The notes below the pieces were generated by a model, which was given only the letters and a program-made list of their open reading frames with translations, did not search any database and had not been told where the DNA came from. From assembly GCF_055900595.2 (NCBI RefSeq), contig NZ_CM148325.1: DNA of 64,000 bases. One strand, given 5' to 3'. Of this stretch, positions 617-43,247 are shown one piece after another (position 1 is the stretch's first letter; the number at the start of each line of letters is the position of its first letter). The position numbers were made by a program, and so were the translations under genes.

Positions 617-1134
617 TTCATAATTCGCCGGATTAACGATATTTGTCTGATTAATAATCAGACCGGATTAATGTTGGTGTGTTTATAACACCAACATTAA
701 TTTCCTGGGGATATATTCTTCCTGTTCATTTAAAGCCAACTGCCTGACGTTTCTCTCCGAATATTCCATTATATTAATGTTGATTTGTTGACCAGCTTCG
801 CCCCTGTATGCTGGTATCAACTCTCTTTTAGACTGAACAAGCCACTCCGCCCCCTCCCTTTGCGGAGCAGCCTGCATTTACACTCAAACTGTTAAGATGA
901 TAAATGTGGTAAATCTGTTGGTACTAACATAAAAACGTTTACGCCACAGGAACAGCCTGATCCACCAGTAACCCCATCGCCGACGTTCGAGTGCCAGTTA
1001 GAGTAACGCGCACAGATGACTGCACGCAGTGCCCTGTCAAAGAGGCCATCGTTCCTGTGACAGCTGGCAGCCTTCGTTTAACTTCACTTAATTTGGCTCT
1101 TGGGGGGCTTACCGAACAGGGTAATGACTCCAAC

Positions 1135-1638
1135 TTATTGATAGTGTTTTATGTTCAGATAATGCCCGATGACTTTGTCATGCAGCTCCACCGATTTTGA
1201 GAACGACAGCGACTTCCGTCCCAGCCGTGCCAGGTGCTGCCTCAGATTCAGGTTATGCCGCTCAATTCGCTGCGTATATCGCTTGCTGATTACGTGCAGC
1301 TTTCCCTTCAGGCGGGATTCATACAGCGGCCAGCCATCCGTCATCCATATCACCACGTCAAAGGGTGACAGCAGGCTCATAAGACGCCCCAGCGTCGCCA
1401 TAGTGCGTTCACCGAATACGTGCGCAACAACCGTCTTCCGGAGCCTGTCATACGCGTAAAACAGCCAGCGCTGGCGCGATTTAGCCCCGACATAGCCCCA
1501 CTGTTCGTCCATTTCCGCGCAGACGATGACGTCACTGCCCGGCTGTATGCGCGAGGTTACCGACTGCGGCCTGAGTTTTTTAAGTGACGTAAAATCGTGT
1601 TGAGGCCAACGCCCATAATGCGGGCAGTTGCCCGGCAT
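1135..1638 (-). CDS. insB: IS1 InsB frame (transposase made as InsAB' by frameshifting)
   Basis: 167-aa ORF overlapping insA 3' end in -1 frame, typical IS1 organisation. Confidence 0.85.
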
Positions 1639-1832
1639 CCAACGCCATTCATGGCCATATCAATGATTTTCTGGTGCGTACCGGGTTGAGAAGCGGTGTA
1701 AGTGAACTGCAGTTGCCATGTTTTACGGCAGTGAGAGCAGAGATAGCGCTGATGTCCGGCGGTGCTTTTGCCGTTACGCACCACCCCGTCAGTAGCTGAA
1801 CAGGAGGGACAGCTGATAGAAACAGAAGCCAC
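1557..1832 (-). CDS. insA: IS1 protein InsA
   Basis: 91-aa translation [37 protein letters not shown]... Confidence 0.9.
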
Positions 1833-1949
1833 TGGAGCACCTCAAAAACACCATCATACACTAAATCAGTAAGTTGGCAGCATCACCAAAACCTGCAAAA
1901 ACTCTTAGATCTTTTACAGAGCGAAGATGGATTCAGTAGCAATAAGAAG

Positions 1950-4949
1950 TTGATTGGCAAATTTCGTTTGTTACCGAAAAAATTAACCACAAAGAAAAAA
2001 CATGAATCCCAAAATGGACACGTCCACTTTTCTAATCCTAAACGAGCAGCCGACCATTTATTTAATAATTTTGATCTGATACCAGAGTTTCGTATTATTG
2101 GTGACTTCCCGGTTGATAGTCACATTATCTCTGCACTATGGATTAACATGGTCGGGCATAAATTTGATGCCAGCTTAGATAACTGTTGCTATGGCGCGCG
2201 GCTAAAGCGTATTCGTAATGATGAATTATTTAGCAATGAGCAGGATAATCCATTCCATATCAGTGCAGTGGGTTCTTTTAGCCCCTACTTCCAGCCCTAC
2301 CAAAAATGGCGTGGTGATGGCTTAAAAGCTATACGTGACGAGTTGGAAAAAGATCGTGACATTATCGCCGCCTCACTGGATTTAAAAAGTTACTATCATT
2401 TTATTGATCCACTGGCTATAACCTCTGATGATCTCTATAACACACTAAACATAAAACTGACTGAGGATGAAAAAGCGTTTACTGCACAGTTAGCAGTATT
2501 CTTAAAGCACTGGTCTGACGGCGCAGCGGCATTTGGAAAGAAAATAGCGTACAAAACACCTGTTATTAATGGTGGTCTGGTCATTGGATTAACAGCCAGT
2601 CGGATCATTTCAAATATATTGCTACACCATTGGGATAAATTAGTCATTGAAAAACTATCACCAATTCACTACGGTCGTTATGTCGATGATATGTTCCTTG
2701 TAATACGCGATACAGGGAAAATTACTAATAATCACGAATTTATGTTATTGCTGCAAGATAGGCTTGGCAATGATTGCGTTTATTTGAAAAACGAGCAAAA
2801 ACAAATATGGCAAATACAGCAGGGCGAGCATTTCCAGGGTAAGACCACCATCCAGTTACAATCCGATAAGCAAAAACTTTTCGTGCTTCAAGGGAGGGCT
2901 GGAATAGACCTGCTCGACAGTATCGAAAAGGAGATCTACGAGCTTTCTAGTGAACACCGCTTGATGCCTTCACCGGATCAACTGGAACACTCAACCGCAG
3001 CTAAAGTCCTTTCCGCTGCCGGTAGTGTAGGTGAAAATGCCGATACTCTGCGCCGTGCAGATGGATTAACCATTCGTCGTTTGGGCTGGTCACTGCAATT
3101 ACGCTACGTTGAAACACTGGCACGAGATCTGCCTCCAAGTGAATGGAAAGAACAGCGGGAAGAGTTTTATCAGTTTGCCTACAACCATATTCTTAGGGCT
3201 GATAATCTATTTGCACATTTTAGTTATCTGCCAAGGCTGCTTGGCTTTGCTATCAGTATGAATGAATGGCAGCACGCGGAAACAATTGTACTTAAAGCTT
3301 ACGAATCCATCAACCTGTTGGCATCGGTGATTACTTCAGGTAAGGAAGTGAATATAAATGGTTGCAAAACTCGAGCAGTAAATGATCTTTGGCGCTGTAT
3401 AAAAGGCACATTAAGCTGGCTATTTGTTGATGCAGCGACACGATATTACAGTCCTGACAGATTATTTCTTGATAAACGTTCAAAGAAAGAAGAGTGCCTT
3501 GCGGATACATTTTTTAATCATATTTCACAAAGTCTGACGAATCTAAAGGATTTACTGGATCTTCGCTTTGATTCAGCAGATTTTTATTTAAAAGCGCCAT
3601 TGGTAGCTCGAGCTGATTTAGCAAAGGAACCTTATAAACAGATCGTAAAGAGTCAGTCGGCAGAAAAACTTGTTAATCAGCGTGATAGTAAAAAAGAAGT
3701 TAAAATACTGAAATTAATGAGCGACTCATCGCTTATTGATATTGACGTTATTAAGCTATTTTTGAAATCAACCAAGAATACCCGACTGGAAAAAGTGGCT
3801 AAAGGAAATCGTAAGAACGAAAGTTACCTACCTTACATTTTCCCTACACGTCCTTTAACACCCGCTGAAATATCAGAACTGGCCCCCGAATGTGTTGGAT
3901 TACCCTCCACATCCGACAAAAAACCAGATGAGAGACCGTCCACCATTTGGGCAAAATATACTCAAGCATTACGCGGAGTATGGATCAAACCGACGTTGCT
4001 AGCATCGGAGCAGGACTCAGATGAAGCGACAAAAAAAGCTCGGCCTAAGAAATTCATTCATATTGGCACAGACAGGAAACATAAAGTTGTCGTTGCGCTA
4101 ACCAGCATTAAAACAGAGGAGGACGACTGGGCTAAAATGGCCTGCAATAAATCTAACTTGTCCCGTTCAAGGTACCAGCGGATTTCTGAACTGGTTAATG
4201 CAACATTGAAACTATCTCCTAAACCTGATTATGTTTTATTCCCTGAGCTTTCAATCCCGTTACGCTGGGTTAACAGTATTGCTGATCGTTTGAGTTCGGC
4301 GGGTATCAGTCTAATTGCGGGAACAGAATACCGCCACTTAGACGATAATCAACTGAAGAGTGAGGCCGTACTTGTCCTTTCAGATAACAGACTCGGCTAT
4401 CCAGCGAGTGTCAAAATATGGCAACCCAAGCTGGAACCCGCCGTAGGTGAAGATGAGGCATTATTTTCAACTTATGGTAAGTCTTGGGACTCGACACTTA
4501 ATGTTAAACAACGTAAGCCGGTATATATTCATCATGGCGTCAATTTTGGCGTTATGATTTGCTCTGAACTCCAGAATAGTAAAGCGAGGATCCGTTTTCA
4601 GGGCGCACTCGATGCATTAATGGTATTGAGCTGGAATAAAGATCTAGATACGTTTGCATCGTTGATTGAATCAGCAGCGCTGGATATTCATGCCTATACT
4701 ATTTTAGTGAATAACCGAAAATACGGCGATAGTCGCGTACGTTCCCCGGCAAAAGAACCCTTTATGCGTGATATTGCTCGTGTGAAGGGCGGTGATAATG
4801 ACTTTGTGGTCGCTGCAACGCTGGATATCGACTCGTTAAGGGCATTTCAGAGCAGGGCAAAACGCTGGCCTAAAGGCGGCGATAAATTCAAACCGTTACC
4901 TGAAGGATTCCAGTTGGCAAAGAACCGCAAAAAGCTACCGCCAAAATAA
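1950..4949 (+). CDS. Reverse transcriptase fused to C-terminal nitrilase/C-N hydrolase domain (DRT type 1 / UG1-like); 5' end probably truncated by IS1
   Basis: RT motif A ASLDLKSYYHFID and motif C RYVDDMFLV; C-terminal FPELS...GVMICSELQ (Glu and Cys of nitrilase triad); first start is TTG and frame stays open back to IS1 edge. Confidence 0.7.
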   Translation: MIGKFRLLPKKLTTKKKHESQNGHVHFSNPKRAADHLFNNFDLIPEFRIIGDFPVDSHIISALWINMVGHKFDASLDNCCYGARLKRIRNDELFSNEQDNPFHISAVGSFSPYFQPYQKWRGDGLKAIRDELEKDRDIIAASLDLKSYYHFIDPLAITSDDLYNTLNIKLTEDEKAFTAQLAVFLKHWSDGAAAFGKKIAYKTPVINGGLVIGLTASRIISNILLHHWDKLVIEKLSPIHYGRYVDDMFLVIRDTGKITNNHEFMLLLQDRLGNDCVYLKNEQKQIWQIQQGEHFQGKTTIQLQSDKQKLFVLQGRAGIDLLDSIEKEIYELSSEHRLMPSPDQLEHSTAAKVLSAAGSVGENADTLRRADGLTIRRLGWSLQLRYVETLARDLPPSEWKEQREEFYQFAYNHILRADNLFAHFSYLPRLLGFAISMNEWQHAETIVLKAYESINLLASVITSGKEVNINGCKTRAVNDLWRCIKGTLSWLFVDAATRYYSPDRLFLDKRSKKEECLADTFFNHISQSLTNLKDLLDLRFDSADFYLKAPLVARADLAKEPYKQIVKSQSAEKLVNQRDSKKEVKILKLMSDSSLIDIDVIKLFLKSTKNTRLEKVAKGNRKNESYLPYIFPTRPLTPAEISELAPECVGLPSTSDKKPDERPSTIWAKYTQALRGVWIKPTLLASEQDSDEATKKARPKKFIHIGTDRKHKVVVALTSIKTEEDDWAKMACNKSNLSRSRYQRISELVNATLKLSPKPDYVLFPELSIPLRWVNSIADRLSSAGISLIAGTEYRHLDDNQLKSEAVLVLSDNRLGYPASVKIWQPKLEPAVGEDEALFSTYGKSWDSTLNVKQRKPVYIHHGVNFGVMICSELQNSKARIRFQGALDALMVLSWNKDLDTFASLIESAALDIHAYTILVNNRKYGDSRVRSPAKEPFMRDIARVKGGDNDFVVAATLDIDSLRAFQSRAKRWPKGGDKFKPLPEGFQLAKNRKKLPPK

Positions 4950-5201
4950 GAAACTGATTTTCGCTATTAATAATCAGGGTATTTTTGCGTGAGATGTCGG
5001 TAAACATGATGTAGCTCTTGCCACTCATGACCAATCGCAGTATCTTTCTCCCGCGTCTGCAAAATCAGGCGTCGGGATTAGCCTCCTGAAGAAATCTTAT
5101 CGGCGACACATGACGCGCCAGCGTCTTTTTTTGTGTTGTTCGCACGGTTACACCTCAATGGTGGGCCGGGCGGGGGCGTCGCAAGACGCGCCAGTGTCCG
5201 A

Positions 5202-5295
5202 TAAGGCTGGTAAGGCTAACCCTGCCCGGTTCCACCACCCGCGAGATTAGCCTCTCCGGTGGTGGCTTGAACACCCACTTATCGGAGGTTGCCCT
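5202..5295 (+). promoter_or_regulatory. Conserved leader upstream of paralogous gene (second copy 51929-52022) with two mutually exclusive hairpins
   Basis: About 80 percent identity between the two leaders; stems GGCTAA/TTAGCC and CCACCACC/GGTGGTGG; one compensatory A-T to G-C change in copy 2. Confidence 0.35.
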
Positions 5296-5766
5296 ATGGC
5301 TACAATCCTCACCACTGACAGCGATTTACTCGATCTATTGACCGTCCCCTTCAATGCCACCACGGATTTCACTGTCCTTGCTGACTACTGCGCCCGCTTT
5401 GCCGAAACCCTGATTGAAACCGACGATCCCGCGCTACGACTGGCGCTCTGCGGGCGGCTTCACGCGGCTCTTGCGCTATTGCAACCCACACTACACGACC
5501 CCATCCCACCGCATCTTACCGAAAGCCTGACCGTGGATACCCTTCCCGCCACACCAGAGCACTTTATTTCCGAACCTGATTCCTTGTGCGAATACTGCCT
5601 CGCACTACTCCAGCTTCTGCTGGAACGTCCGGCGGAACCAAAAATGGAGCAAACCCTGACCGGGCTGCTGTGTGAGCTGGTCTGGTATTTCACGGAAGGA
5701 CTCAAAGCCCCGCGCTGGATGCGTACCGCCGACGGCGTAAAATTTATCAGCGAGGTGGCCGCATGA
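5296..5766 (+). CDS. Hypothetical acidic protein (paralog at 52023-52487)
   Basis: 156-aa ORF with GGAGG RBS 7 nt upstream; second diverged copy in window. Confidence 0.6.
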   Translation: MATILTTDSDLLDLLTVPFNATTDFTVLADYCARFAETLIETDDPALRLALCGRLHAALALLQPTLHDPIPPHLTESLTVDTLPATPEHFISEPDSLCEYCLALLQLLLERPAEPKMEQTLTGLLCELVWYFTEGLKAPRWMRTADGVKFISEVAA

Positions 5767-5903
5767 TGCAACAGGACTGGCATTCCGCCGACATTATTGC
5801 GGTGCTGAAAAAGCGGGGAACGCCTCTGGCGGCACAGAGAAAAACTCATTGCGGAAGCGCTGTAAATATCGCCAGAAATCATCTGGTCCTCAAGGTACTT
5901 TGA
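5763..5903 (+). pseudogene. Ner/Nlp-like DNA-binding protein, N-terminal remnant
   Basis: MMQQDWHSADIIAVLKKRGTPLAA resembles the Ner/Nlp N-terminus, then frame degenerates; overlaps integrase fragment. Confidence 0.35.
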
Positions 5904-6103
5904 TAGCAAAGGCAAGCTGGCTGGTTCAGTCCGGAGTCTCTCTTCTTGCACTTAAAGAGATGGGAGGATGGGAAACTCTCAAAAAGGTTCAGAGATACGC
6001 TCACCTTTCAGCCGGGCATCTCACCGAGCACGCAAGCAAAATCGGCACGATCATAAGTCGCAATGGCACAAATACGGCACAGGAGGAAGCGTGGTGTATT
6101 TAA
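5849..6103 (+). pseudogene. Tyrosine integrase C-terminal fragment
   Basis: LLALKEMGGWETLKKVQRYAHLS is a typical recombinase C-terminus with catalytic Tyr region; no N-terminal domains upstream. Confidence 0.6.
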
Positions 6104-6126
6104 ATATGGGGTAACTACTTGATTTA

Positions 6127-6145
6127 AATGGTGCGATAATAGGAA
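6127..6145. repeat. att core repeat: partial direct copy of thrW 3' end (matches 26845-26864)
   Basis: AATGGTGCGATAATAGGA vs AATGGTGCCGATAATAGGA at the tRNA 3' end, 18 of 19 identical. Confidence 0.6.
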
Positions 6146-7283: not shown

Positions 7284-7718
7284 CTACTGACCAGGATAGA
7301 GCTGATGTGCCGGGTCAAGCCAGACAATATGGAATACATTACCGATGAAAAATCCATGTATGCGACCATATTCATTGCGCGATATGGCAAATTGATAAGG
7401 TGTATAACTCTGAAACTGTTCATTCAAATGCTGAAATCCCTTAGGTTCAGATGTAGTTTGCCAATCAATCGGATGTGACTTCAACGAACCACCGCGATCG
7501 GTGGTGAACTCTCGTTCAGTCATAGTGGAAAGGTCTTTGAGGCGGTCTAACACCTTGCAAAAATAAACAGGATTCTGAGCGCTGAAAGTAAATTTCTCAT
7601 GCGCCGCATCGATATACCGAAAAGAAAAGTTGATGGTCGTTATGCCTGAACCTGTTCCCCCAGGCACTATTTTTGTTTGCGAGGGTGCAATCTTCGACGC
7701 CCTGATTCTTTTCGCCAT
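7284..7718 (-). CDS. Hypothetical 144-aa protein, candidate toxin/effector partner of Panacea-domain protein
   Basis: ORF starts 2 nt after the stop of the upstream Panacea gene; no recognisable motif. Confidence 0.5.
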   Translation of the reverse strand: MAKRIRASKIAPSQTKIVPGGTGSGITTINFSFRYIDAAHEKFTFSAQNPVYFCKVLDRLKDLSTMTEREFTTDRGGSLKSHPIDWQTTSEPKGFQHLNEQFQSYTPYQFAISRNEYGRIHGFFIGNVFHIVWLDPAHQLYPGQ

Positions 7719-7720
7719 AT

Positions 7721-8176
7721 TTAGGAAGCCATCGAACGATAAAACTCAGCCGTTACACTTTTATCAATAACATTCTTGCACGGCGCATCTGATGGAACCC
7801 CTTCACGGGCCTCCAGCCACGGCTTTTCTTGGTGCGTCATCTGCTCCAGCTCATAAGCTGTATAACCGCCAAATACCTCATAGATTTCCTTTAGATGCTT
7901 TGACACATTCGCAGGTAACTCAGGGCAGGCAATCTCTTCGTCTATTGAGCGCCATTTGTAATCTGCAAATCTGGTATACAAATCTCTGGCTACAGGGCCA
8001 TGTACCCATGCTTCAAACTTGTCAGCAACCAGTTCTTCGCCATCATTCAGCGCCATGAACCAAGCATCAGCATAGAACACCATTTTTTGCAGTTTCAGCG
8101 GCGTCATAACATCCCCATGCTCTTGAGCAAAGCAAAGCAGGTAATCCGCTACGCTGTTAAGGGTTGTAACTGCCAT
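7721..8176 (-). CDS. Panacea-domain protein (DUF4065, GepA/SocA-like antitoxin family)
   Basis: MTPLKLQKMVFYADAWFMAL...EAWVHGPV...YELEQMTHQEKPWLEAREG pattern; start moved to internal ATG at 8176 with AGGAG RBS. Confidence 0.75.
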   Translation of the reverse strand: MAVTTLNSVADYLLCFAQEHGDVMTPLKLQKMVFYADAWFMALNDGEELVADKFEAWVHGPVARDLYTRFADYKWRSIDEEIACPELPANVSKHLKEIYEVFGGYTAYELEQMTHQEKPWLEAREGVPSDAPCKNVIDKSVTAEFYRSMAS

Positions 8177-8497
8177 TATCCAATCTCCTGCCGTATGTTT
8201 TCGTCTATAACTGTCCACTACCGTTAATAATCGCATATAACCACGGGTATTGCCCATCGTAAAATGCCATTTAAAGATTCTGCGTGATGGCTCACCATCC
8301 ACCGCGCAAGATACCCGGTGCGTTTGGCTGATAATCCGCAATTTGGTTGAAACCGTCCTGGAAACCTCAAGTTTGGAAACCAGCGACTTGCATCGTAGCT
8401 TTGCCATTCGGCGGTCATAGTTACTGCTATATCCCTTTATTGGCGAGACCTGCGAGAGGTTTTGTTGTTCGAATATATAAAGGTGAATAAAGGTAAT

Positions 8498-11671: not shown

Positions 11672-14398
11672 CTATTCCCATTCGCTAACATCTTTCATGC
11701 CACTGAGGGTAGCTACAATCCCGGCCCTTGTCAGTTTCACGAATTCTTCAGCCCCAACGGCATCACGAATTGCTTTCATGGCAATTTTATTGGCCGAAAA
11801 TCGTTTCTCTGCTGCGGCGATCGCTGCTGGTGATGCCCCTGCGCGCACTGCTTTTGTAGCTTCCTGAACGGCTTTCTCTATCGCATATCGACCACTTCTT
11901 GTCGCCCCAATCTTAGCCACAGCATTTCTTAGCGCGCCACCAGCAACCAAACCACTAATCGAACCAATTACACCACCGCCAAAGCCTCCAGCGATCGCAC
12001 CTGACTGTTGAACACCGTTCATAATCACGCCGACGATCTTTGGAAGGCCTGAATCGAGCGTTTTGAGAGCCTCAGTTGTTCTTCCCGTGCGCTCTACGTA
12101 TCGCTGCGGTCTGGTACTGGCTTTAGCGAGTACACCGAACTCTTTCATCATTCTACCGAGATCTGGCGCATGACGACTGATGGCGTTTACATTCTGCTGG
12201 GTCATGAGCTTGGCAAAATACTGGATACCTGACTCTTCACCGATTCCTCCCTTCTCTCCCTGCGCCACAGCATGCTGAAGAATAGATGCTATTGCAGGTT
12301 GGCGTTCTGCTTCCGGCAGCGCGGAGATAAGACGGTGAAAAGCTCCCGTTCCAGTGTTTGCGGATGCCTTAAGCGTATCGGCACCTTTTCTTACCATAGC
12401 GTCTGATGCGAGATCTCGACCAAAAACAGATTCGGCATTTTGTTTGGCGATAATGTAACTTTTAGAGAGATCGTTAGCTTTCTGCCATTCTGTGAGGAAG
12501 TTTCCTTTTTCAGCCATGATGCGCATGTCATCAGTGATAGCTCTGCGCATTTCTCCGGCAATCCGGGCGGCATTGGCCTTACCTGCCCGGGTGTTTGCTT
12601 GTTCAGCATCAGCAAACTTAGCACGCCATGCCTTCATCCCGTCGAAGGTTATGCCGCCACCTTGGTTGTTGGCAGCCTGAAACTGTTTCATCTCCGGGCT
12701 GAGTGGAACATTGGCTGCTTTTTCTGCTTGGACGACAGCCATTCCATTACTCATTTTCATCCTTTCGCGTGGCATCGTGCTTCGCAGTTCTGCCCATGCC
12801 ATATTCTCTGCTGTTTTCATATCACTGAGGCTCGCGATGATGCGCTCTTTAATTGCTGCGCTTTTTTCTGATGCGCTTCCAGACTCAGCACCGAAATCAG
12901 ACAACTGCTTATTCAACTTTGAGGATATTTCATTGAAGGCCGTAAGGTGAGCATCCTGAACATTCCCAGGAGTTGATGCCAGAACACCTTCTGCTTGGGC
13001 AATTCCACGACTACCTGAGCGCATTCCAGGCGTCAGGGTGTTGATATTAATACCAGTGATTTTCGCCGCCTTAGCGACATCATCTCTGACGTTTGATGCC
13101 TGCGATGCGATATGCTCTCGGCCTACGGCAGAACGCGCTGCTTTCGATACATCATTGGCGGTTTCCAGAGTATTTGCTGCCCCTAACACATGGCCTGATT
13201 GATTTGTATTACTCCGCAATACATCTCGCATTACGTCACTGGCTGTCTGTCCGCTCTTTATTAAAGCGCGTGCTCCTAGCGATCCTGCTAGGCCAATACC
13301 TGTCTCTTTTGCTAGGTCTTCTGGGCTGATCTGCCCGTTCTTTTGGGCGTTCACCAATGTACCTGGCAGGTTTTCTGCCAACATACTAGCCACCTTTGTG
13401 GCCGCACGTTCAGCACGTGGAGCGTTGGCAACTGAAGAAGCTGCGGTAGCTGCCTTTCCTGCACCTAATCCTGTAATAAGGTAAGGTGCTAGCTGCTCAC
13501 CAGCCTGCGCGTATGGATCTGTAGGTTGGTCTACTGGGCGAAAGACAGGTGATATGGGCGTGTATGTGCCATCACCCACACCAAGCTTCTGAGCTGCCCA
13601 TGCTCCGGCTGATTGCGCCGCATTGACTACCCCCACGCCTGCGTCCATTACATCAAACGGTATATTAGCAATCCCTCTGGCCATCTGCTCTGGCGCAGCT
13701 TTCAGTCCTGGCGAAAGATATTCCATCTCAGGATTAAGGTTAGACTTGGCTACTTGCTGCTGCGGTTCCCCGGCATTTTCATCGGCGAGAAACTGAGCTC
13801 TTTTCTGCTCCCATGAACTGGCTGTTGGTAGTCCTGCTTCTATGTTCTTAAATTGCTGACGTTTTGCTTCCCATGCAGAAATATCTCCCACCTGAGAGAT
13901 TTCTTTATCAAGCTCTGAGTAGTCAGGCTGCTGAAGATTGCGATGTTGACTGGTTTGTGCAAACTGCAAGATTTCACTGTCATCAGGGATTATTCCGGCA
14001 TCTGCAAATTTACTTACGTAATTAGCCGTTTCATCTGGCAGTGTAGATTTACCGTTTCTGACGGCATTAATACGAGCATAGCCAGAATTATACCCAGCCA
14101 ATGCCATACCTATATCACCAAATCGCTTCATTCCTTTATTGAGATGGTTTGCTGCGATATCCATTTGCTTTTCAAATGGCAGTGAGCGCGGATCTGTTCC
14201 ACGATAACCAGCATCACTCATTACTGAGGGCATCAGTTGAGCAAATCCTCTAGCTCCTTTCGGTGACTCGGCACTTCCGTTACCACTAGATTCATTGCCA
14301 ACTAATGTTTCCATCGTCCCTGATGGGAAACCATATTTTTCATCGAGATGACGGGAATAGGCTTTCTGTTTTTCTGTCAGTTGTGCCATCATTGCCAT
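11672..14398 (-). CDS. Phage internal virion/ejection protein with N-terminal lytic transglycosylase (SLT) domain
   Basis: 908 aa; SLT motifs ES(catalytic)...GARGFAQLMP...AGYNSGYAR near the N-terminus. Confidence 0.8.
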   Translation of the reverse strand: MAMMAQLTEKQKAYSRHLDEKYGFPSGTMETLVGNESSGNGSAESPKGARGFAQLMPSVMSDAGYRGTDPRSLPFEKQMDIAANHLNKGMKRFGDIGMALAGYNSGYARINAVRNGKSTLPDETANYVSKFADAGIIPDDSEILQFAQTSQHRNLQQPDYSELDKEISQVGDISAWEAKRQQFKNIEAGLPTASSWEQKRAQFLADENAGEPQQQVAKSNLNPEMEYLSPGLKAAPEQMARGIANIPFDVMDAGVGVVNAAQSAGAWAAQKLGVGDGTYTPISPVFRPVDQPTDPYAQAGEQLAPYLITGLGAGKAATAASSVANAPRAERAATKVASMLAENLPGTLVNAQKNGQISPEDLAKETGIGLAGSLGARALIKSGQTASDVMRDVLRSNTNQSGHVLGAANTLETANDVSKAARSAVGREHIASQASNVRDDVAKAAKITGININTLTPGMRSGSRGIAQAEGVLASTPGNVQDAHLTAFNEISSKLNKQLSDFGAESGSASEKSAAIKERIIASLSDMKTAENMAWAELRSTMPRERMKMSNGMAVVQAEKAANVPLSPEMKQFQAANNQGGGITFDGMKAWRAKFADAEQANTRAGKANAARIAGEMRRAITDDMRIMAEKGNFLTEWQKANDLSKSYIIAKQNAESVFGRDLASDAMVRKGADTLKASANTGTGAFHRLISALPEAERQPAIASILQHAVAQGEKGGIGEESGIQYFAKLMTQQNVNAISRHAPDLGRMMKEFGVLAKASTRPQRYVERTGRTTEALKTLDSGLPKIVGVIMNGVQQSGAIAGGFGGGVIGSISGLVAGGALRNAVAKIGATRSGRYAIEKAVQEATKAVRAGASPAAIAAAEKRFSANKIAMKAIRDAVGAEEFVKLTRAGIVATLSGMKDVSEWE

Positions 14399-15708
14399 CC
14401 CTTAAGTTTTGCCTGATAGTAACTTTCCGGCAGATAGCCATGTGCGGTCACATAATCCTTAACCAGTGAAGGATCCTGCAACAGCATTTTGGTATCAGTT
14501 TCTTCGTCCTTAGATTTGGTTACAGGAATACCGAGCCCGGCAATCTGTCGTTTCTGCATTCGAATAATTACGTCCTGCGCTTTATTCAACTCTCGCAAAA
14601 ATGCCTCATTGCTGGTTGCTGACTTAATGCCATTTTGAGATTGCATAAGGGCAGCCCTTTCCCCTTCGGTTGGGTTAGAGCCAAAAGTCCCTTTGAGGCT
14701 AGGCAGAATAACCTTTAGGTTGTATTCATCAGCTTTGGCGCGTAGGCTTCGTGTGTCTTCTGCTACATCAGGAAGGAATCCAAACCCCAGCGTCAGGGGG
14801 TTATAGTTCTGCGAGCGGGTAACGGCCGAAGGATGTTTCCCTACAATTCCCGCCAGTTCATGACCCACTTCAAGCGCAGAGTTCAAGGAGTCGATGTTAC
14901 CTGCAACAGTATTAATTTTATCGTTCATCTTCTCCACTTTCGCCTGCTGTATCTTGCTCAGTTCAGCATTGAGCTTGTCTCTCTCGATGTCATTTTGAGC
15001 ACGTCCAAGTCGTGCTTTCAGAACCATTTCTCTCGTGCGTAGTTGGTTATCGGATAGGACTTTGAACTGCTCCATATCGAGACGTCGATTACCCTGTTCC
15101 GCATTAACCTGAGCATTATATGCGGATGTATCTGCGTTCTGCTGTGCAATGCTCTGCCCTTGCTGCTTCTCTTGAACACTAAAGTAACTATTTGGATCAG
15201 CATGGAGGTGGATGAGGTCAGTGATTCTGTTGAATTCCTGTGGGTCATTCTGCCAAGACTGATAAACCTCTTCAGCAGGAAGACCAAATCGCTGTAATAC
15301 TGGATTTGCCTGCTGAATGGCCTTCTGCATGGTCAGTGGATCTCCAGTTTGTGACGCAAGACGCAGATTCATGGCAGCGTCAGCGGTCTGTCGATTTTGC
15401 TCAGCATCAATGAATCCCATCTGTTTTTGAGAATCAGCCATAAACTGGGGATACTGGGCCATTAACTTCTGCACGCCAACACGATCATTATTAGCTACCG
15501 CACTACCCAACCGTGCCTGATATTCTTTTAACTGCTGGGAAATTTGCGCCTGCTGATTAATCTCAGCAACGCCTCTTAGCCCCTGTAGCGCCATTAAACC
15601 TACGTTTGGCTGCTGCTGATACTGCACAGGCTGAGGAACGGAAGAACGAGGAGCATTATCATTTTGCGGTGCCATGCTAGGCAGCCCGCCAAGTTGCCAT
15701 GTCGCCAT
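14389..15708 (-). CDS. Phage internal virion/ejection protein (Gln-rich, coiled-coil)
   Basis: 439-aa ORF with start/stop overlap to neighbours in the same operon. Confidence 0.6.
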   Translation of the reverse strand: MATWQLGGLPSMAPQNDNAPRSSVPQPVQYQQQPNVGLMALQGLRGVAEINQQAQISQQLKEYQARLGSAVANNDRVGVQKLMAQYPQFMADSQKQMGFIDAEQNRQTADAAMNLRLASQTGDPLTMQKAIQQANPVLQRFGLPAEEVYQSWQNDPQEFNRITDLIHLHADPNSYFSVQEKQQGQSIAQQNADTSAYNAQVNAEQGNRRLDMEQFKVLSDNQLRTREMVLKARLGRAQNDIERDKLNAELSKIQQAKVEKMNDKINTVAGNIDSLNSALEVGHELAGIVGKHPSAVTRSQNYNPLTLGFGFLPDVAEDTRSLRAKADEYNLKVILPSLKGTFGSNPTEGERAALMQSQNGIKSATSNEAFLRELNKAQDVIIRMQKRQIAGLGIPVTKSKDEETDTKMLLQDPSLVKDYVTAHGYLPESYYQAKLKGWQ

Positions 15709-16385
15709 TAGAATCCAAGCCCCCCAACAAGACCAATAAGCCCACCACCAATAGCGCCGGCCGCAGTTCCTATTCCAGGAACAACGGAACCAAGTTGCGC
15801 ACCCGCTAAAGCGCCTGATGCTGCCCCACCAATACCACGCGCAAGACTGGATGGCTGCTGCGCCTGACCTGCACGAATAGCGCCAAGCCCCTGCAAGAGT
15901 TGTCCGGTATTATTGGCGTAGTTTTGCCCTGCCGTTGCCTGCCCTGATGCCGCATTCATCCCGACATTTAGCAGGTTTCCATAATTTTGCATTTGCCCAC
16001 TGAGCCAATTGTTATAAAGCATGGGCGCAATGGAAGATAACTGGTTACTGGTAGCTGTTGAGCCAAGCCCCCCGGTAGCTTCTGCTGAGACAAGGTTCTG
16101 ATAACGGGCCTGATCTGCCTGTGTTTTATATAAACCAGAACCAAAGAAATCATTCGCGGCTTTATTCTGCCCTTCCAGAGTCATCAGTCCTTGTAGTTGT
16201 TGTAAAGCAGGCAATCCGACTTCTGCATACGGCTTGAGATTATTCATCACCGTATTCCACTGCTCGCGCTGCAAATCAATTGCCTGCTGCTGGGCCTTCG
16301 CCTGAGCTTTAGAGGCACCACCATCACCGCCTTTTTCGTATACGGCACGATTGAGATGTTTATGAGCTATGTGGGTAATTAACAT
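15708..16385 (-). CDS. Phage internal virion/ejection protein with Gly-rich hydrophobic C-terminus
   Basis: 225-aa ORF, overlaps neighbours by 1 and 7 nt. Confidence 0.6.
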   Translation of the reverse strand: MLITHIAHKHLNRAVYEKGGDGGASKAQAKAQQQAIDLQREQWNTVMNNLKPYAEVGLPALQQLQGLMTLEGQNKAANDFFGSGLYKTQADQARYQNLVSAEATGGLGSTATSNQLSSIAPMLYNNWLSGQMQNYGNLLNVGMNAASGQATAGQNYANNTGQLLQGLGAIRAGQAQQPSSLARGIGGAASGALAGAQLGSVVPGIGTAAGAIGGGLIGLVGGLGF

Positions 16386-16840
16386 TCGCTGAATTCCTTA
16401 TATTGTTGCCGAGTTAACTGATAAAGCGTTACGCCGACGGGTTTACCACATCTGATATAAGCATCATCAAGGTGACCAACACGGGTAGCGCCAAGCAAAC
16501 GGATAATTGCCCGTCCGTATTTGGTGGTGTCAGGAACCATGGTAATGCTGTTAAGGAATGGTGAGTTTTCGAGAAGCCATTTGCAGAATAATCGATGCCC
16601 TTGCAGTGCATATTCACCACGGAATCCGGGGTCGTACACCGCATGGCATTCAACAACGCTATGCCAGAAGTTACGCACTTCATGAACGCCAGCCAGCACT
16701 AATCCTTCGTAGATGCCGAGATATACCGCATCAGGCTTGATGTAGTACGTGTGCCCCGGCTCAACAATATTTTCGGTATTGCCTGGCTCGTTAAGAAAGG
16801 CCTGTAATCGCACAGGGTTATCAATAAATTTTAGTTCCAT
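16379..16840 (-). CDS. Hypothetical phage protein, first gene of ejection-protein operon
   Basis: 153-aa ORF. Confidence 0.55.
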   Translation of the reverse strand: MELKFIDNPVRLQAFLNEPGNTENIVEPGHTYYIKPDAVYLGIYEGLVLAGVHEVRNFWHSVVECHAVYDPGFRGEYALQGHRLFCKWLLENSPFLNSITMVPDTTKYGRAIIRLLGATRVGHLDDAYIRCGKPVGVTLYQLTRQQYKEFSEC

Positions 16841-16856
16841 GCGATGCCATCCATTT

Positions 16857-17018
16857 TCACATACAGCCTGCCAGCGCCTTATCTATTAACCCTCGTGCAA
16901 TTTCATGCAGAGTTGGCGCTACTCCAATTCCTGATTTTTTACGCTGCTCTTCCTGAATTTTCTTTATCGCTTCCATTTGCTTCTCACTTATCAATACCGG
17001 CTTTACTGAAATAGCCAT
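16857..17018 (-). CDS. Small hypothetical protein (53 aa)
   Basis: Hand-translated ORF below the track length cutoff, AT-rich promoter upstream. Confidence 0.3.
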   Translation of the reverse strand: MAISVKPVLISEKQMEAIKKIQEEQRKKSGIGVAPTLHEIARGLIDKALAGCM

Positions 17019-17466
17019 AACGCCCCCTTAGAACTGTATAAAACAACAGTTATTATAGTTTCACAAATCGCAATATTCATCATCGTAATTGCAAAATATG
17101 AAACAAATAGCACAAAAAAATGCCACCGCTCAGTAGCTGGTGGCATCGTTCTGTGTGTCAGGTTTTGACAGGTTTTTTATGGACTCTAAAAACTATATTT
17201 ATGGTGTCGCATTACTCTTCACGGCAGGCGCTTTTCAGTTCTGCCCTTGCTTCTGGCTCCATTGGTAATTTGATTCGCGATCAGCTATGCGGATGGTTTG
17301 CTGAACAGGCATAACAACTTCTCAGAGGCTGTTTTTTGAACTACGAAAATTTCGTAGTGCTCACTTTCAAAAACGTCACGCCCTTGTACACAGGATTTTA
17401 CGAAAGTCTCGTAAAACACTCTCTGATGCCAGCCAGGTGTTGTGCGCATCAATTCAGTCACATTGT

Positions 17467-17577
17467 GTTGGTTCAAAATACCGTGTTGTTGGTTCAGTGT
17501 TGGTTCAATAAAAAGAATAAAATCCTTATAAAACAATACTCTTTACAAATTGAACCAACTGAACCAACTGAACCAAC
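17467..17577. repeat. Iteron cluster B: 3 spaced GTTGGTTCA then 3 tandem TGAACCAAC; inverted image of cluster A
   Basis: Reverse complement shares a 45-nt near-identical block with 9295-9340; lies just downstream of the primase gene. Confidence 0.8.
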
Positions 17578-17602
17578 ACCTTTTCTACGCACATGAAGAA
17601 GC

Positions 17603-20362
17603 TCATTCTTCAGATGAGTTATAATCTCCTGGCTGGTAATTGAGTACATAAACGTTTATTTGTCGTCCCTGAATACGTGGTGATTTTCTTTGGTATCCAC
17701 GACCGCTGTTTGGTGGGGTTAGCATCCCGGCTTTTTTCAACACTTCAGCAAACTGTTTTGCGTTGAAACCACATGCGATCTCCTTTTCAAATGTGGCCGG
17801 GAATGTGTAGAAAATCATTGGGCTTTCGTCATGTTCTCCACGCTGACGGTATCCGGCTAAATCTTTGATGGGCAAATCTGCCGGGCTGTATGGAAATGGT
17901 GCAAAACGGCTAAGCCCATAGGCATTAAGAAATGCCTCCGTTTGTTCAATAATCTGCTGATGTTCTTTGTTACCTGTGCCGAACTCGCGCAACCATGCGT
18001 TATAGCTGTGCTGTATCGCATCACGGCATGTCTGAGCATCCCAGCCTGTTACAACCTCGCCTAACAGCAATGCGGCCTCCAGAATGGCAAATCGCGCGGC
18101 TACACGGTGAACCTGCTCACCATAATCGGATGGGATCAGGCTTCTCCATCTGCTTTCGCAATCACGAACGGTTTTAATAGCCTGTTGCTGGTGGTCTGCC
18201 AGCCATTTAATCCACTCACGCCCGGACGCGCCGTGGTGATGCTGGTAAGCGTCTTTCAGTGCGTCTGCGTGCTGTTTTCCGTTCTGGTAATCGTGAAAGC
18301 GTACTGCTTTACTCAACGGAATATTCAGCAGTCGCACCAGTTGCCCGGCTTTGGTTTTTCGCCCGGAAGTAGCGATAAATGTTTCTAAATCCATTTCTCC
18401 GGTGCTGATTGCCACTGTACGCCAACGTTTTAGATCCCGGTTTCCACCATCTTTAGCGCCTTGCAGTTTCCCTACACCGTTAAATAACGCATAGGCAGAC
18501 TGTGAAACGCTGACAGGATCAGCGCCCTGACCAACTTCATCAAGCGGCATTAGTCCGTCATTGTGGGCGGCGGCCTCATTTGCCAGCCCCAGCGCGGTTC
18601 CGTACCACGTCAGCCGCAGTAAATCAGGGTTGCCGTATAAGCTGCTCGCCACGTTTGCCGTGGTGGTCTTACCTGCGCTCGACTGCTCATAGAAATGAAT
18701 GCCGAACCCGTCAGCGCCCACCAGCCCAATCAATGGCGCTGCCAGTGCTGCGCCGATCCCGGTCATCATTGAATAGTTACCAAAGGCCAGACGCGCCACG
18801 TTATCACGCCAGCTTTTCGCGCTCCCTGAGACGGTATATCCGGCTGCGGCTGAGCTTCTCCCGCTGAACAGCACAGGATTTTCAGGTGTTCCGATGATTT
18901 CCCCATCAGGCATGATGTACGCTCCGCATTGCCAGCCAGTGGCATGAGCAACACGCCACAATTCACGAGAGCCACTGCGTTGTAGCCAGTCTGCCAGTAT
19001 TGCTCTGAGGCTGCTTTTGGTCGTGACATTTACCCCACCAGCTTTAAGTGTGCGCCATCCTTCACGTTCACCAATATCAGCCAGTGGAATGGCAGCGGTT
19101 GTCGGCGTTTCAGAACCAAACGACAGCCAGCGAAGAATGAGATACTGGTCTTTATCGTCTCTGCCAGTACCGATAACGCTTAACGGAGAACATAACCAGC
19201 TTTCGTTATTGATGATTTCTCCACTCTGGCTGTCAGCTCTCGGAGATACCCAATAAATACCATCCTCGCGGCTTTCTATTCTTGGTTTCAGTGGGTCGGT
19301 ATCCATAACCTTAAAATCGCTTCCCTCAATGGTCTGTGGCTCCTGTTTCACGCCATTACCCTGTGGTTGGTACATTGACTTATTGAACGCTTCTGTGGCG
19401 CATTTAATGCCGTGTTTTTGGTGGTAATCATTCCAGTCTGCTTTGTGATCTGTCGGGGGTAATGCCACCCATCCAGAAACAGATAAAGCTGCTTTTTCTG
19501 CTGCTATTCTCCCCGTGTTTTGTCTTCCTTCGCTGTGGTCGTTATCCGCAGCAATGATGATTTGTGCTGAAGGATATTTATCCCGCAGTACCTGGGCGAC
19601 ATATAACAGGTTCCCGGCATCAATCGCCGCCACTGTCAGCGCCTCTGGACGAATTAAATGGGCAGATAATGCCGTTGCCAGCCCTTCTGCGATTAAGATG
19701 CTCTGTGTTGTTTCTGGTGCGTTTATGGCGTGATATGCCCCCCGCTTTGCTGAACCTGTCAGGAGTCTTTTTTCACCATGTGAGGTAATAGTCTGTGCTG
19801 CTGTGACTGCGCCGGATTTATCCACCAGCGCCAGCAACAGAGATCCATCGGGCAACACGGGGAATGTAAAATCACCTACCCCTTTCGCAACCAGATAATC
19901 AGATTTGCCGTTTACAGCCTTTCTGCGCATGTCATCAAACTGACGGGAAAACGTATCCCGTCTTTGTTGTTCGTCCTTCTCTGCCCTTTTCAGGCGCTCC
20001 TGTTCGCGTCGCTGGCGCTCGGTTTCCAGTTGTTCCCGTTTCTGGCTGGTGGCTTCTGGTGTTTCCGTTGTCCGGTAATCAATACCCAGAACATCAGCGG
20101 CAAGAAGCGCCGCCTCTGTTGTGTCGCAGTTATTTACGCGTTTAATTAAATCCAGCCCATCACCAGCGCCGCACTGATTACAGATGAAGCTACCGCGCCC
20201 GTTGTCATCGAACCGGAATCGATCTTTGCCCCCACATGCAGGGCAGGGAGCATGACGGCGCGGAGAGTCAGGGACATTTATGTTCAGGCAGCCCAGCACA
20301 TGAGGCCAGTTGTTTTCAGACGCACTGATAACCTGACGGATAAGATCAATGTTTCGCATCAC
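17603..20362 (-). CDS. P4 alpha-like DNA primase-helicase
   Basis: 919 aa; zinc-finger CPACGG...CNQCG, TOPRIM-like acidic core IIIAADNDH, Walker A SSAGKTT. Confidence 0.85.
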   Translation of the reverse strand: MMRNIDLIRQVISASENNWPHVLGCLNINVPDSPRRHAPCPACGGKDRFRFDDNGRGSFICNQCGAGDGLDLIKRVNNCDTTEAALLAADVLGIDYRTTETPEATSQKREQLETERQRREQERLKRAEKDEQQRRDTFSRQFDDMRRKAVNGKSDYLVAKGVGDFTFPVLPDGSLLLALVDKSGAVTAAQTITSHGEKRLLTGSAKRGAYHAINAPETTQSILIAEGLATALSAHLIRPEALTVAAIDAGNLLYVAQVLRDKYPSAQIIIAADNDHSEGRQNTGRIAAEKAALSVSGWVALPPTDHKADWNDYHQKHGIKCATEAFNKSMYQPQGNGVKQEPQTIEGSDFKVMDTDPLKPRIESREDGIYWVSPRADSQSGEIINNESWLCSPLSVIGTGRDDKDQYLILRWLSFGSETPTTAAIPLADIGEREGWRTLKAGGVNVTTKSSLRAILADWLQRSGSRELWRVAHATGWQCGAYIMPDGEIIGTPENPVLFSGRSSAAAGYTVSGSAKSWRDNVARLAFGNYSMMTGIGAALAAPLIGLVGADGFGIHFYEQSSAGKTTTANVASSLYGNPDLLRLTWYGTALGLANEAAAHNDGLMPLDEVGQGADPVSVSQSAYALFNGVGKLQGAKDGGNRDLKRWRTVAISTGEMDLETFIATSGRKTKAGQLVRLLNIPLSKAVRFHDYQNGKQHADALKDAYQHHHGASGREWIKWLADHQQQAIKTVRDCESRWRSLIPSDYGEQVHRVAARFAILEAALLLGEVVTGWDAQTCRDAIQHSYNAWLREFGTGNKEHQQIIEQTEAFLNAYGLSRFAPFPYSPADLPIKDLAGYRQRGEHDESPMIFYTFPATFEKEIACGFNAKQFAEVLKKAGMLTPPNSGRGYQRKSPRIQGRQINVYVLNYQPGDYNSSEE

Positions 20363-22138: not shown

Positions 22139-22386
22139 TTTTCACCACCAAGAATTACCAGCTCTGCACGAGCATCGTTAACCAAAGATGAGCACGCTTT
22201 AATCGCATCCACGACATCAGCAGCGTCCATTTCTTCAGCCGAAAGACTGACAGCAACCAGGACAGCCGCTGCTTGCTCGATTAATTGAAGTGCGGACGTA
22301 AGTCGAGGGGCATTAATTGAGTTATTCATTGGTTGCCCCCGTTTTTCCTGGCATTTCGCCACCTTCCAGCAGGAAATGAACGTCAC
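22135..22386 (-). CDS. Hypothetical protein
   Basis: 83-aa ORF; true start may be internal. Confidence 0.35.
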   Translation of the reverse strand: MTFISCWKVAKCQEKRGQPMNNSINAPRLTSALQLIEQAAAVLVAVSLSAEEMDAADVVDAIKACSSLVNDARAELVILGGEK

Positions 22387-22540
22387 GAACGGCGAGATCC
22401 AATATCGCGAGTAACGCCTTCAGTCTTTCGTCTCGTGAGGGAGAGTTGCTCACCAGAATGTCGTTAATCACTTCTGTCAGTGTGATGATCTGGCTTGTGC
22501 GTTCGAGGGGATCCATATGCACATCGTAGGTTTTAATCAT
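22322..22540 (-). CDS. Hypothetical small protein
   Basis: C-terminal 72 aa of the long 355-aa track ORF; GGAGGTG RBS before ATG at 22540. Confidence 0.35.
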   Translation of the reverse strand: MIKTYDVHMDPLERTSQIITLTEVINDILVSNSPSRDERLKALLAILDLAVRDVHFLLEGGEMPGKTGATNE

Positions 22541-22874
22541 GTGCCACCTCCATGCGGATACGACCAGCAAAAAAGCAGACGTGATCGCGCACCAGAGAAC
22601 GGCGAGCATCGCGTTCAGACTCGGCAGCAATATGATGAATTTTGGCGGTAATTGTCGGGCAATCGCGGCGAACTGCGGCGATAATCCAGATAAATTGCGG
22701 TTTTTGGGTAGGGGTAGTAGCCAGCATGTGGCAGCCTCCTTGTACTGGGAATTCTTCCCACCACCGGAGCTGCGAAACTCGCTGGTGGTGGACTGAACAG
22801 AGTTCGCAGTACCGGCGTACAAGGAAACCGGCCAGCCTTTCGGCTGCCCTGTCCAGCCCACCATAATTTTGCAA
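22533..22874 (-). CDS. Hypothetical protein
   Basis: 113-aa ORF with ATG/TGA overlap at 22533-22540. Confidence 0.35.
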   Translation of the reverse strand: MQNYGGLDRAAERLAGFLVRRYCELCSVHHQRVSQLRWWEEFPVQGGCHMLATTPTQKPQFIWIIAAVRRDCPTITAKIHHIAAESERDARRSLVRDHVCFFAGRIRMEVAHD

Positions 22875-23385
22875 GCGACGCGGATTATAACCACATCACT
22901 GAAAAAAGTGTGAGTCTGGCTAACGGCACAAAAAAAGACGCTCGGCGCGTCATGTGTCGCCTCGTACATTTCCGGGCTGCGAAACCCGGCACCCGTTTTA
23001 TGAGGTGCCTTATAACCATAAACCGTGTTGCCGCATAACGGCAAGCTCTTTTTTATGGACTCCGAAAACTCACTATTGGAAGAACCAGAAGCACAGTACA
23101 TCGCGCTCATTTCGTTAACGTCACGCGCGTGGACGAATGTTTTTGTGGAGTCACTACACGAGCGGAAGACATCATCTACGACCAGAAATTTTCTGGCGCA
23201 GCCGCTGACCTTCTCAAGGCTAATATCATCGCCCGAGATTTCTGGTATGGTTAAGGCATCCGTTCCGGCCACCAGCAAATGATAAACTTTGCTTGTATCT
23301 GCTGTATTAATGCCTGACTTTGCCGTCATATTTCTGGATTTTGGCGACATACCAGCCAGTGAAAATGTCTTCTTCTGGATGGGTA

Positions 23386-23565
23386 TCATTGGTTAACCTC
23401 CGCGAACTCCTTCATGAAACGCGCCAGCGGTTGTACGCATGGCGATTGATACCCGTCGCGATAAAACGTCACTCGGTTGTGAGACACGCTTTCGACAGTA
23501 ACGAGTGCTCCGTGGGCATCTTTGTAGCGTTTTTGAGGTTGTGGTGTTCCTGTCGGCTTAAACAT
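23386..23565 (-). CDS. Small hypothetical protein
   Basis: 59-aa ORF from internal ATG overlapping antirepressor stop. Confidence 0.35.
   Translation of the reverse strand: MFKPTGTPQPQKRYKDAHGALVTVESVSHNRVTFYRDGYQSPCVQPLARFMKEFAEVNQ

Positions 23566-41000: not shown

Positions 41001-42981
<1,981 letters not shown>

Positions 42982-43106: not shown

Positions 43107-43247
<141 letters not shown>

Follow-up and report, generated by a model that had tools for sequence, protein, structure and literature searches.

Elements integrated at thrW and their relatives

The tRNA gene thrW is a recognised integration hotspot (PMC7545054). Lambdoid phages such as SfX, HK542, mEp213, mEp043 and HK75, the phages SfI, SfII, SfIV and SfV, and P22-like prophages use integrases whose attachment core is the 3' end of thrW. 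In E. coli K-12, the ptwF/CP4-6 region occupies the same site, and the end of the same int gene (~54 bp) survives there together with the att copy ptwF. At tRNA genes, integrase remnants and att copies, ptwF of K-12 being an example, are a textbook result of genome decay. The genomic island GI-thrW of E. coli ST131 (strain EC958) is also located at this site and encodes M.EcoMIII (PMC4659465). Two further systems have to be considered here. These are the Ner/Nlp (SfsB) family of small winged helix-turn-helix (HTH) repressors (HTH_35, PF13693; PHROG 769) and the P4-like satellites and islands with antisense-RNA immunity of the C4/CI type.

The locus described here belongs to a 64-kb stretch of DNA (contig NZ_CM148325.1, assembly GCF_055900595.2), which is referred to below as the window (Table 1). 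In it, a Ner-like gene runs into the 3' end of the int gene of a phage, which is followed by an att copy of the thrW type. The Ner remnant matches the family profile in both of its pieces; compared with the family, it has lost the HTH core, is shifted in frame, contains a TAA codon and ends in integrase sequence instead of its own C-terminus. The integrase remnant shares the attachment core with the thrW phages and differs from their integrases in its short length, its frameshift and an incomplete catalytic set. The junction of the two is real and represents ordinary genome decay, and the region 5763-6114 as a whole is probably a non-functional deletion scar of single origin. Each element named in the original prediction was recovered, and none of them is a chance match.

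As regards GI-thrW, the window differs in cargo, having a DRT (RT_UG5-nitrilase) gene cut by IS1 and not a restriction-modification (R-M) system. The ST131-type locus, composed of type I R-M, ash, the acidic gene, the scar and thrW, is most likely the island published as GI-thrW (PMC4659465). In the accessible parts of the literature on thrW, on defence and on hotspots, which provide only island catalogues and ST131 papers, the Ner-integrase junction is not described.

Table 1. Features of the older island, the scar and the neighbouring DNA in the window
Feature	Position	Strand	Basis or remark
c4-a1b1 targets	5040-5092	+	Rfam, 41.5 bits, below gathering score 46.7
isrK	5053-5131	+	Rfam, 66.5 bits, gathering score 50
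C4 antisense RNA	5154-5242	+	Rfam, 71.1 bits, gathering score 45
Acidic-protein gene, intact, 156 aa, pI 4.4	5296-5766	+	ORF list
Ner/Nlp-like (Pfam HTH_35) pseudogene	5763-5910	+	Nearly full length
Ner part 1, codons 1-23/24, frame of ATG 5763	5763-5831	+	HTH_35 profile positions 1-20; tblastn
Site of 65-bp internal deletion in Ner-like gene	5822-5839	+	Alignments, tblastn
Ner part 2, residues ~48-72, second frame, 72 bp	5839-5910	+	HTH_35 positions 42-68; alignments
Ner-to-integrase junction, GGCAA	5911-5915	+	Alignments to intact Ner and int genes
3' end of thrW-specific lambdoid phage integrase, 204 bp	5911-6114	+	Non-functional
Degenerate att copy, 16 bp (one C missing) of the 17-bp thrW 3' end	6129-6144	+	Exact and fuzzy search
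Later-arrived composite DNA between both att copies, 20.7 kb	6145-26846	.	Pfam
P22-type ejection genes	11672-16840	-	Pfam
P4-like satellite primase	17603-20362	-	Pfam
P4-like satellite Ash	22322-23389	-	Pfam
Second C4/isrK pair	22781-23008		Rfam
P4-like satellite AntA	23558-24391	-	Pfam
Intact P4-type integrase of satellite	25467-26681	-	Pfam
thrW, tRNA-Thr, anticodon CGT (CGU)	26847-26922	-	ARAGORN, Rfam tRNA
Second att copy, 3' 17 bp of thrW	26847-26863	-	Exact and fuzzy search

Immunity region and acidic-protein gene

A P4/P1-type antisense-RNA immunity region (5040-5242, plus strand) lies directly upstream of the acidic-protein gene; in other genomes, PGAP calls small 'ash family' ORFs at this RNA region. 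A bona fide P4-like satellite carrying the same RNAs is located 17 kb away in the window. Unlike such satellites, the remains of the older island, consisting of IS1, RT_UG5-nitrilase, the acidic gene and the Ner remnant, possess neither a P4 primase nor an Ash-domain protein, psu/delta/sid or a P4-type integrase. The younger element of the window has the P4 hallmarks primase, Ash, AntA and P4-type integrase.

The TGA of the acidic gene (5764-5766) and the ATG of the Ner-like gene (5763-5765) overlap as ATGA, as had been predicted, and intact homologues of the pair retain the same 4-bp overlap. Homologues of the acidic protein with 59-92% identity, the E. whittamii protein (L011) showing 92%, are encoded ahead of a Ner-like gene in Escherichia islands, where the latter gene is missing only in L012. 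The dN/dS ratio of the acidic gene between haplotypes is ~0.1. The protein belongs to no family in Pfam, NCBIfam, PHROG or PADLOC, and it was not found in 50,697 phage records, with the exception of one 1.5-kb fragment. AlphaFold2 predicts a helical bundle (pLDDT 82, pTM 0.76), for which a Foldseek search of the PDB returned only generic four-helix bundles, none of them at E<=0.001. The yagN-ykgV pair of K-12 CP4-6, having a 4-bp overlap and an HTH second gene, was rejected as a counterpart of the acidic/Ner pair, there being no similarity.

The Ner-like pseudogene

The first part of the Ner-like gene, translated in frame 1, reads MMQQDWHSADIIAVLKKRGTPLAA. Compared with an intact homologue of 84 aa, it shows 70% identity to residues 1-23, and its own score against HTH_35 (E=2.6e-5, 24.5 bits) is just below the cut-off of 25. 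The second part, in frame 2, is translated as EKLIAEAL*ISPEIIWSSRYFDSKG; the asterisk marks the nonsense codon TAA (5863-5865), which replaces the GAA of intact genes. Joined together, the two pieces match HTH_35 (PF13693) with E=2.3e-13 and 50.3 bits, the cut-off being 25. What separates them is a 65-bp deletion. It takes out Ner residues ~24-47, which form the HTH core, and causes a +1 frameshift. Its exact breakpoint is ambiguous within the short repeat TGGCGGC/TGGCCGC. Four intact homologues (L004, L008 and L011 by alignment, L009 by tblastn) reveal the deletion as a gap of 65 columns. At the C-terminus, only the last 11-13 codons are missing, and integrase sequence stands in their place.

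Thus, the HTH_35 match starting at 5763 confirms the Ner/Nlp-like N-terminus of about 24 codons that was originally proposed. The idea of a 24-codon stub has to be modified, however: the N-terminal codons are there, but the gene is nearly complete and bears two further independent lesions. The remnant retains no uninterrupted ORF of ~75-92 aa that would hold the HTH core. Owing to the deletion of this core, the frame shift, the TAA codon and the loss of the C-terminus, DNA binding or repressor activity would not be expected from such a sequence.

Intact Ner homologues of 82-84 aa follow an acidic homologue in tRNA-Asn islands (L004, L008, L009) and in E. whittamii (L011). An intact homologue falls into PHROG 769 'transcriptional repressor' with E=7e-33; against the SfsB model it gives E=4e-33 and 113 bits, while the equivalog cut-off is 150. 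Since they stay below this cut-off, the intact homologues are to be regarded as island-borne paralogues and not as sfsB. Among 5426 E. coli genomes, no intact copy of the Ner allele of the scar was found at >80% DNA identity. With the E. whittamii gene as query, the close matches in E. coli break off where the 65 bp have been lost; intact copies show an identity of <=78% and occupy other sites.

The integrase fragment and its junction with the Ner remnant

The integrase fragment (int') stems from a thrW-specific lambdoid tyrosine integrase of 384 aa, of which it covers residues 318-384. It is encoded in the third frame as ASWLVQSGV...QRYAHL..., the frame 3 translation reading ...ASWLVQSGVSLLALKEMGGWETLKKVQRYAHLSAGHLTEHASKIG.... 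At the protein level, it shows 93% identity to residues 318-376 of the intact integrase of a thrW prophage (L006; BLASTP E=6e-36), and its DNA is ~91% identical to int of SfX/HK542/mEp213 over 218 bp, i.e. 204 bp plus spacer (E=3e-81). The Pfam Phage_integrase profile (PF00589) is matched at positions 137-170 of 172 (E=8.7e-5); the score of 22.8 bits is lower than the cut-off of 27.1 because only the tail of the profile is present. The profile match and the identity to the L006 integrase agree with the earlier assignment to the C-terminal catalytic region of a tyrosine integrase. Tested against profiles, both fragments of the fusion were thus matched, the one by HTH_35 and the other by Phage_integrase.

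The fragment begins just past HDLRHTW, the HxxR motif and residues 1-317 being absent. It keeps W337 and the region of the catalytic Tyr346, four of the six catalytic residues being gone, and it is accompanied neither by xis nor by an N-terminal or core-binding domain. In the window, a 1-bp deletion between 6087 and 6088 leads to a frameshift stop at 6101-6103. The repeated block, which includes AA, starts at 6127, so that the reading ends 23 bp before the att repeat, in line with the original prediction. The ancestral TAA of the integrase (6112-6114) is separated from the tRNA-derived core by 14 bp. Exactly this spacing is seen in L006, where a P22-like prophage at thrW has an intact 384-aa integrase ending 14 bp before thrW, with anti-RecBCD, Eag, Ea22-like and xis-like genes as neighbours. 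In phages SfI and HK542, int ends directly against the annotated attP. PGAP labels the int fragment 'integrase, frameshifted, missing N-terminus' and flags both pieces of the scar as pseudogenes in most genomes. Both the Ner remnant and the int remnant are unable to work.

The point at which the two remnants meet was placed by alignment to intact int and Ner-like genes, as were the 65-bp deletion, the TAA codon and the 1-bp deletion. BLAST matches to intact integrases begin at query positions 212-216, i.e. at 5911-5915 of the window. A Ner start running into integrase sequence in another frame was correctly recognised at the outset, both parts being present, but the junction lies at 5911-5915 and not near 5835-5849. 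The first Ner piece is separated from the integrase piece by the 72 bp of second-frame Ner sequence (5839-5910). The junction sequence GGCAA is common to intact Ner 3' ends (GGGCAAC in L004 and L008) and to the integrase gene (GGGCAAGC). It is probably a 5-bp microhomology, as judged from these homologues, although the closest intact Ner homologue (L011) reads GGAAAT at this spot.

Copies of the attachment site and the later insert

The att copy next to int' has the sequence TGGTG-CGATAATAGGA, and the 64-kb window holds two att copies only, this one and that of thrW. A left-hand att copy of the older island was not found at <=3 errors, either in the window or among the loci retrieved. Its right-hand copy is the degenerate one in the window and thrW itself in L001, L005 and L007. 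Consequently, the older island is not bounded by direct repeats of the tRNA 3' end, only the right copy being present, and the integration of this island at thrW by its own means is putative because the left copy was not found.

In many genomes (L001, L005, L007, L030, L033), an intact thrW follows immediately upon the scar, and the 20.7-kb insert of the window is absent there. The DNA between the two att copies of the window is hence a later arrival. Directly after the att copy of the scar, this insert contains a P22-type prophage remnant.

Distribution, single origin and mosaic flanks

The 161 bp across the junction (5800-5960) were found as a single copy in 802 of 5426 complete E. coli genomes, or ~15%, and in 548 of these 802 the identity over the query was >=99%. 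In all ten loci compared, the junction, the 65-bp deletion and the TAA codon are present in common, which indicates that the scar arose once. Being single-copy and usually abutting thrW directly, it can be considered one old, inherited scar. In many genomes, scar and thrW are followed by proA, while the upstream cargo varies. This cargo consists of AbiE and a 1069-aa reverse transcriptase-nitrilase in L001 and L005, of a type I R-M system in L002, L007, L032 and L033, and of the IS1-cut DRT gene in the window. Besides the scar-bearing genomes, ~1,900 further records, K-12 included, contain only the last ~50 bp of int (~54 bp in K-12) and the att copy.

The core of the scar (5752-5917) shows 0-3 differences per 166 positions across the ten loci, whereas its flanks differ by 8-35%. 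The left flank falls into discrete haplotypes; across its 256-bp C4 RNA region, <=45 positions differ, and within the acidic gene <=36. In the right flank, which is int', the number reaches ~70 per 200 bp. All pairings of left and right haplotypes are represented. The 'B' allele of int' has the original HK542-like sequence from 5911 to ~5955 and is then 97.7% identical to int of SfI/SfII/SfIV/SfV, and the 'C' allele has a short SfI-like patch within HK542-like sequence. An independent origin of the junction in the strains whose int' differs from 5918 onwards was considered and rejected, since positions 5911 to ~5955 are still HK542-like in them.

The simplest reading is that the flanks have recombined with homologous donors, i.e. 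with related islands on the left and with incoming thrW phages on the right. The scar is unique and has no donor, so that the core stays clonal while the flanks are exchanged. In this way, it can be explained without selection that a pseudogene seems better conserved than the sequences beside it. Furthermore, the int' alleles being recombinants with SfI/II/IV/V-type or HK542-type int, thrW phages must have adjoined the scar repeatedly.

The near-invariance of the core could also be taken as a sign that the remnant has been kept for a function, be it as a 46-aa Ner peptide, as a read-through RNA antisense to thrW, or as P'-arm Int sites that modulate integration. The 46-aa ORF of the Ner N-terminus is annotated by PGAP as a 'helix-turn-helix domain-containing protein' (WP_001424131.1). 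As the int stop lies only 14 bp from the core, any P'-arm sites must fall inside the 204 bp retained. However, recombination accounts for the low diversity of the core, the flanks having donors and the scar none. In one widespread lineage, codon 6 of the 46-aa ORF has changed from TGG to TGA, and a TAG is found inside int' in the same lineage. Moreover, int' is freely overwritten, frameshifted or interrupted, and K-12 along with many others manages with 54 bp. Retention for a function is therefore extremely improbable, and nothing suggests that the scar has one.

Origin of the junction: one element or two

The original prediction attributed the fusion to an internal deletion in an older integrated element. 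A deletion scar in older DNA at thrW is indeed observed, but the assumption of a single element does not hold well, the two halves differing in element type. In five intact Escherichia relatives, the acidic gene is accompanied by Ner (except in L012), sometimes by HigA, and by a 294-aa Integrase_1-family gene. In four of them (L004, L008, L011, L012), a P4-type integrase comes after the Integrase_1 gene; in L009, the sole P4-type integrase lies upstream, next to tRNA-Asn, and the orientation of the acidic/Ner module relative to the integrase differs from that in the other four. A lambdoid integrase was found in none of the five. The 294-aa Integrase_1 protein (PF12835) was rejected as a parent of the int fragment, belonging to a different family (BLASTP E=0.11). 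The fragment instead comes from the thrW-integrating lambdoid phages, in which the thrW 3' end serves as attP.

Because the relatives of the module lack a lambdoid int and the acidic protein is nearly absent from phages, a deletion across two elements is favoured; it most likely spanned an island and a prophage in tandem. The tandem configuration required here is exemplified in the window itself by the P22-type remnant beside the att copy. The undeleted tandem state was not found among the 5426 complete E. coli genomes. Since no close intact Ner copy was found in these genomes either, the deleted content has been reconstructed from tRNA-Asn islands that are 60-80% identical.

The course of events may have been as follows. 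An island at thrW would have contained, in order, variable cargo, the C4/isrK immunity region, the 156-aa acidic gene and the gene of the Ner-like repressor. Between this island and thrW, a lambdoid phage specific for thrW, with an integrase of the SfX/HK542/P22-like group, would later have inserted itself. An illegitimate deletion, with its ends within the 5-bp GGCAA of the Ner 3' end and of integrase codon ~318, would then have removed the last 11-13 Ner codons, the tRNA-proximal end of the island (by analogy HigA, the Integrase_1-family gene and the P4-type integrase), the intervening att copy and the whole prophage except for the last 204 bp of int. Additionally, the Ner remnant lost the 65 bp of its HTH core and gained the TAA. 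Having neither an integrase nor a left att copy, the island would have become immobilised beside thrW, to be passed on as part of the chromosome. To the right of it, the integration of new elements at thrW continues, as in the window.

In the alternative closer to the original prediction, a single older element carried both the Ner module and a lambdoid-type integrase and suffered an internal deletion between them. The module and int' do lie on the same strand, in the order of a leftward early operon running into int, and C4/isrK-type regions are also known from lambdoid prophages, beside Rha or Icd-like genes. No att copy is left between the halves, and the undeleted state has not been found. 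Against this stand the intact Escherichia relatives, all of which have Integrase_1 and P4-type enzymes in place of a lambdoid integrase, as well as the phage records, where the acidic protein is absent apart from the fragment mentioned above. The upstream cargo (DRT with AbiE, or type I R-M) likewise resembles that of integrase-borne islands and not the early regions of prophages. On this evidence, a single-element origin is unlikely.

It has also been considered that the junction was formed by insertion, the island having joined a pre-existing int remnant at thrW from the left through illegitimate recombination or homologous replacement. A bare int remnant is common, given the ~1,900 records with only the end of int, and the flanks of the scar have demonstrably been exchanged by recombination. 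Nevertheless, new site-specific integrations land between the older DNA and thrW, as in the window and in K-12 CP4-6, so that greater age would be expected of the DNA left of int'. In addition, the K-12 remnant of ~54 bp is shorter than the 204 bp present here; it cannot have been the recipient and is explained more simply by a further or separate deletion. An insertion is accordingly much less probable still than a deletion within one element. The deletion across two tandem elements thus remains the preferred explanation.

Significance for the thrW hotspot

The immobilised block, comprising the C4 region, the acidic gene, the Ner scar and int' with its attL-type flank, might conceivably provide two fixed homology anchors at thrW, although this is rather doubtful. 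If so, related islands would recombine in the C4/acidic region and swap DRT with AbiE for type I R-M. On the other side, int' would recombine with int of an adjacent thrW phage, deleting the phage precisely and leaving a mosaic int'. The scar, while passive, would thereby drive the turnover of defence cassettes and purge thrW prophages.

The scar involves no new mechanism; its value lies chiefly in correct annotation and in tracing what has happened at the thrW hotspot. Neither the 46-aa 'helix-turn-helix domain-containing protein' nor the 'integrase' called at this locus in RefSeq genomes is a gene; they are the halves of one dead junction. As a convenient marker of single origin, shared by ~15% of the complete E. 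coli genomes, the scar divides an old, immobilised island with defence cargo from later integrations at thrW. The contrast between its nearly invariant core and its mosaic flanks illustrates that such islands are remodelled by homologous recombination and not by their own lost integrases.

The orphan acidic protein and its neighbours

The acidic protein encoded at window 5296-5766 (156 aa, pI 4.4) is a member of an orphan family found solely in islands of Enterobacteriaceae, at 18 loci among 100,044 species genomes. Pfam, NCBIfam, PHROG and PADLOC gave no match to the protein. The gene has a dN/dS of about 0.1. AlphaFold2 models its product as a helical bundle (pLDDT 82), for which the PDB offers no informative neighbour. 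In Escherichia islands the gene is partnered by a Ner-like gene; for most homologues outside Escherichia, tblastn detected no Ner-like gene beside them. In Escherichia whittamii (L011:10001-20350), a P4-type integrase has a copy of the acidic/Ner/Integrase_1 module on either side, the two copies being inverted relative to each other. No tRNA gene was detected by ARAGORN in this 20-kb locus.

The window contains two separate antisense-RNA immunity regions of the P4/P1 type, each with isrK and C4 (table). The first lies upstream of the orphan acidic gene in the old island, and the second is located within the younger P4-like satellite, adjoined by an Ash-domain protein. Matches to isrC (145 bits) and naRNA4 were also observed far from the scar, all exceeding the Rfam gathering score.

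In the old island, an IS1 copy has severed the promoter and the first ~49 codons from the reverse transcriptase-nitrilase gene. The intact 1069-aa gene is present in another scar-bearing E. coli locus (L001:2491-5700), where AbiEi/AbiEii adjoin; similarity of this locus to the window begins at 1888, with none to its left.

Features in the window
Feature	Position	Strand	Details
IS1 copy	1119-1890		99% identity to K-12 IS1B
Reverse transcriptase-nitrilase defence gene, 5'-truncated	1888-4949		PADLOC RT_UG5-nitrilase, E=8e-288
First immunity region	5040-5242	+	isrK, C4, c4-a1b1 targets
144-aa ORF	7284-7718	-	Downstream of SocA/Panacea ORF; no Pfam match
SocA/Panacea-domain antitoxin-like ORF	7721-8407	-	Left end of later insert
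P22-type ejection genes	11672-16840		DUF2824/gp14-like, gp7, gp20-like translocase, SLT-domain gp16-like
Satellite primase-helicase	17603-20362	-
Second immunity region	22781-23008	-	isrK, C4
Satellite P4-type integrase	25467-26681
isrC (1), naRNA4 (CssrE) (3)	42387-42509, 43110-43181, 43845-43922, 46568-46645	all -	Rfam

Composite structure of the later insert

The later insert (6145-26846) is a composite, in which P22-type ejection genes abut a P4-like satellite that also has Ash and AntA. The absence of an att copy between the two parts (16840-17603) suggests that this boundary is another scar left by fusion between elements. Immediately downstream of the satellite primase gene (17440-17580) lies a cluster of short repeats that run in both orientations, copies of GTTGGTTCA coming first and tandem copies of GAACCAAC after; these resemble iterons and may represent the replication origin of the satellite. 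The SocA/Panacea-domain and 144-aa ORFs may form a toxin-antitoxin pair.

Integrase remnant in other strains

In E. coli K-12 (L010:6604-7085), only the last ~54 bp of the integrase and the att copy (ptwF) are left, located between the yagP pseudogene and CP4-6 intF; the 54-bp piece carries no annotation in the record. The counterparts of the window's integrase remnant int' (5911-6114) in three other scar-bearing loci (L005:5213-5416, L002:6622-6825 and L007:5213-5416) are all recombinant mosaics. In window numbering, L005 and L002 are of the SfI/II/IV/V type from ~5956 on; in L007, a short patch at 5980-5998 is SfI-like. Such mosaicism implies that int' has recombined repeatedly with incoming thrW phages.
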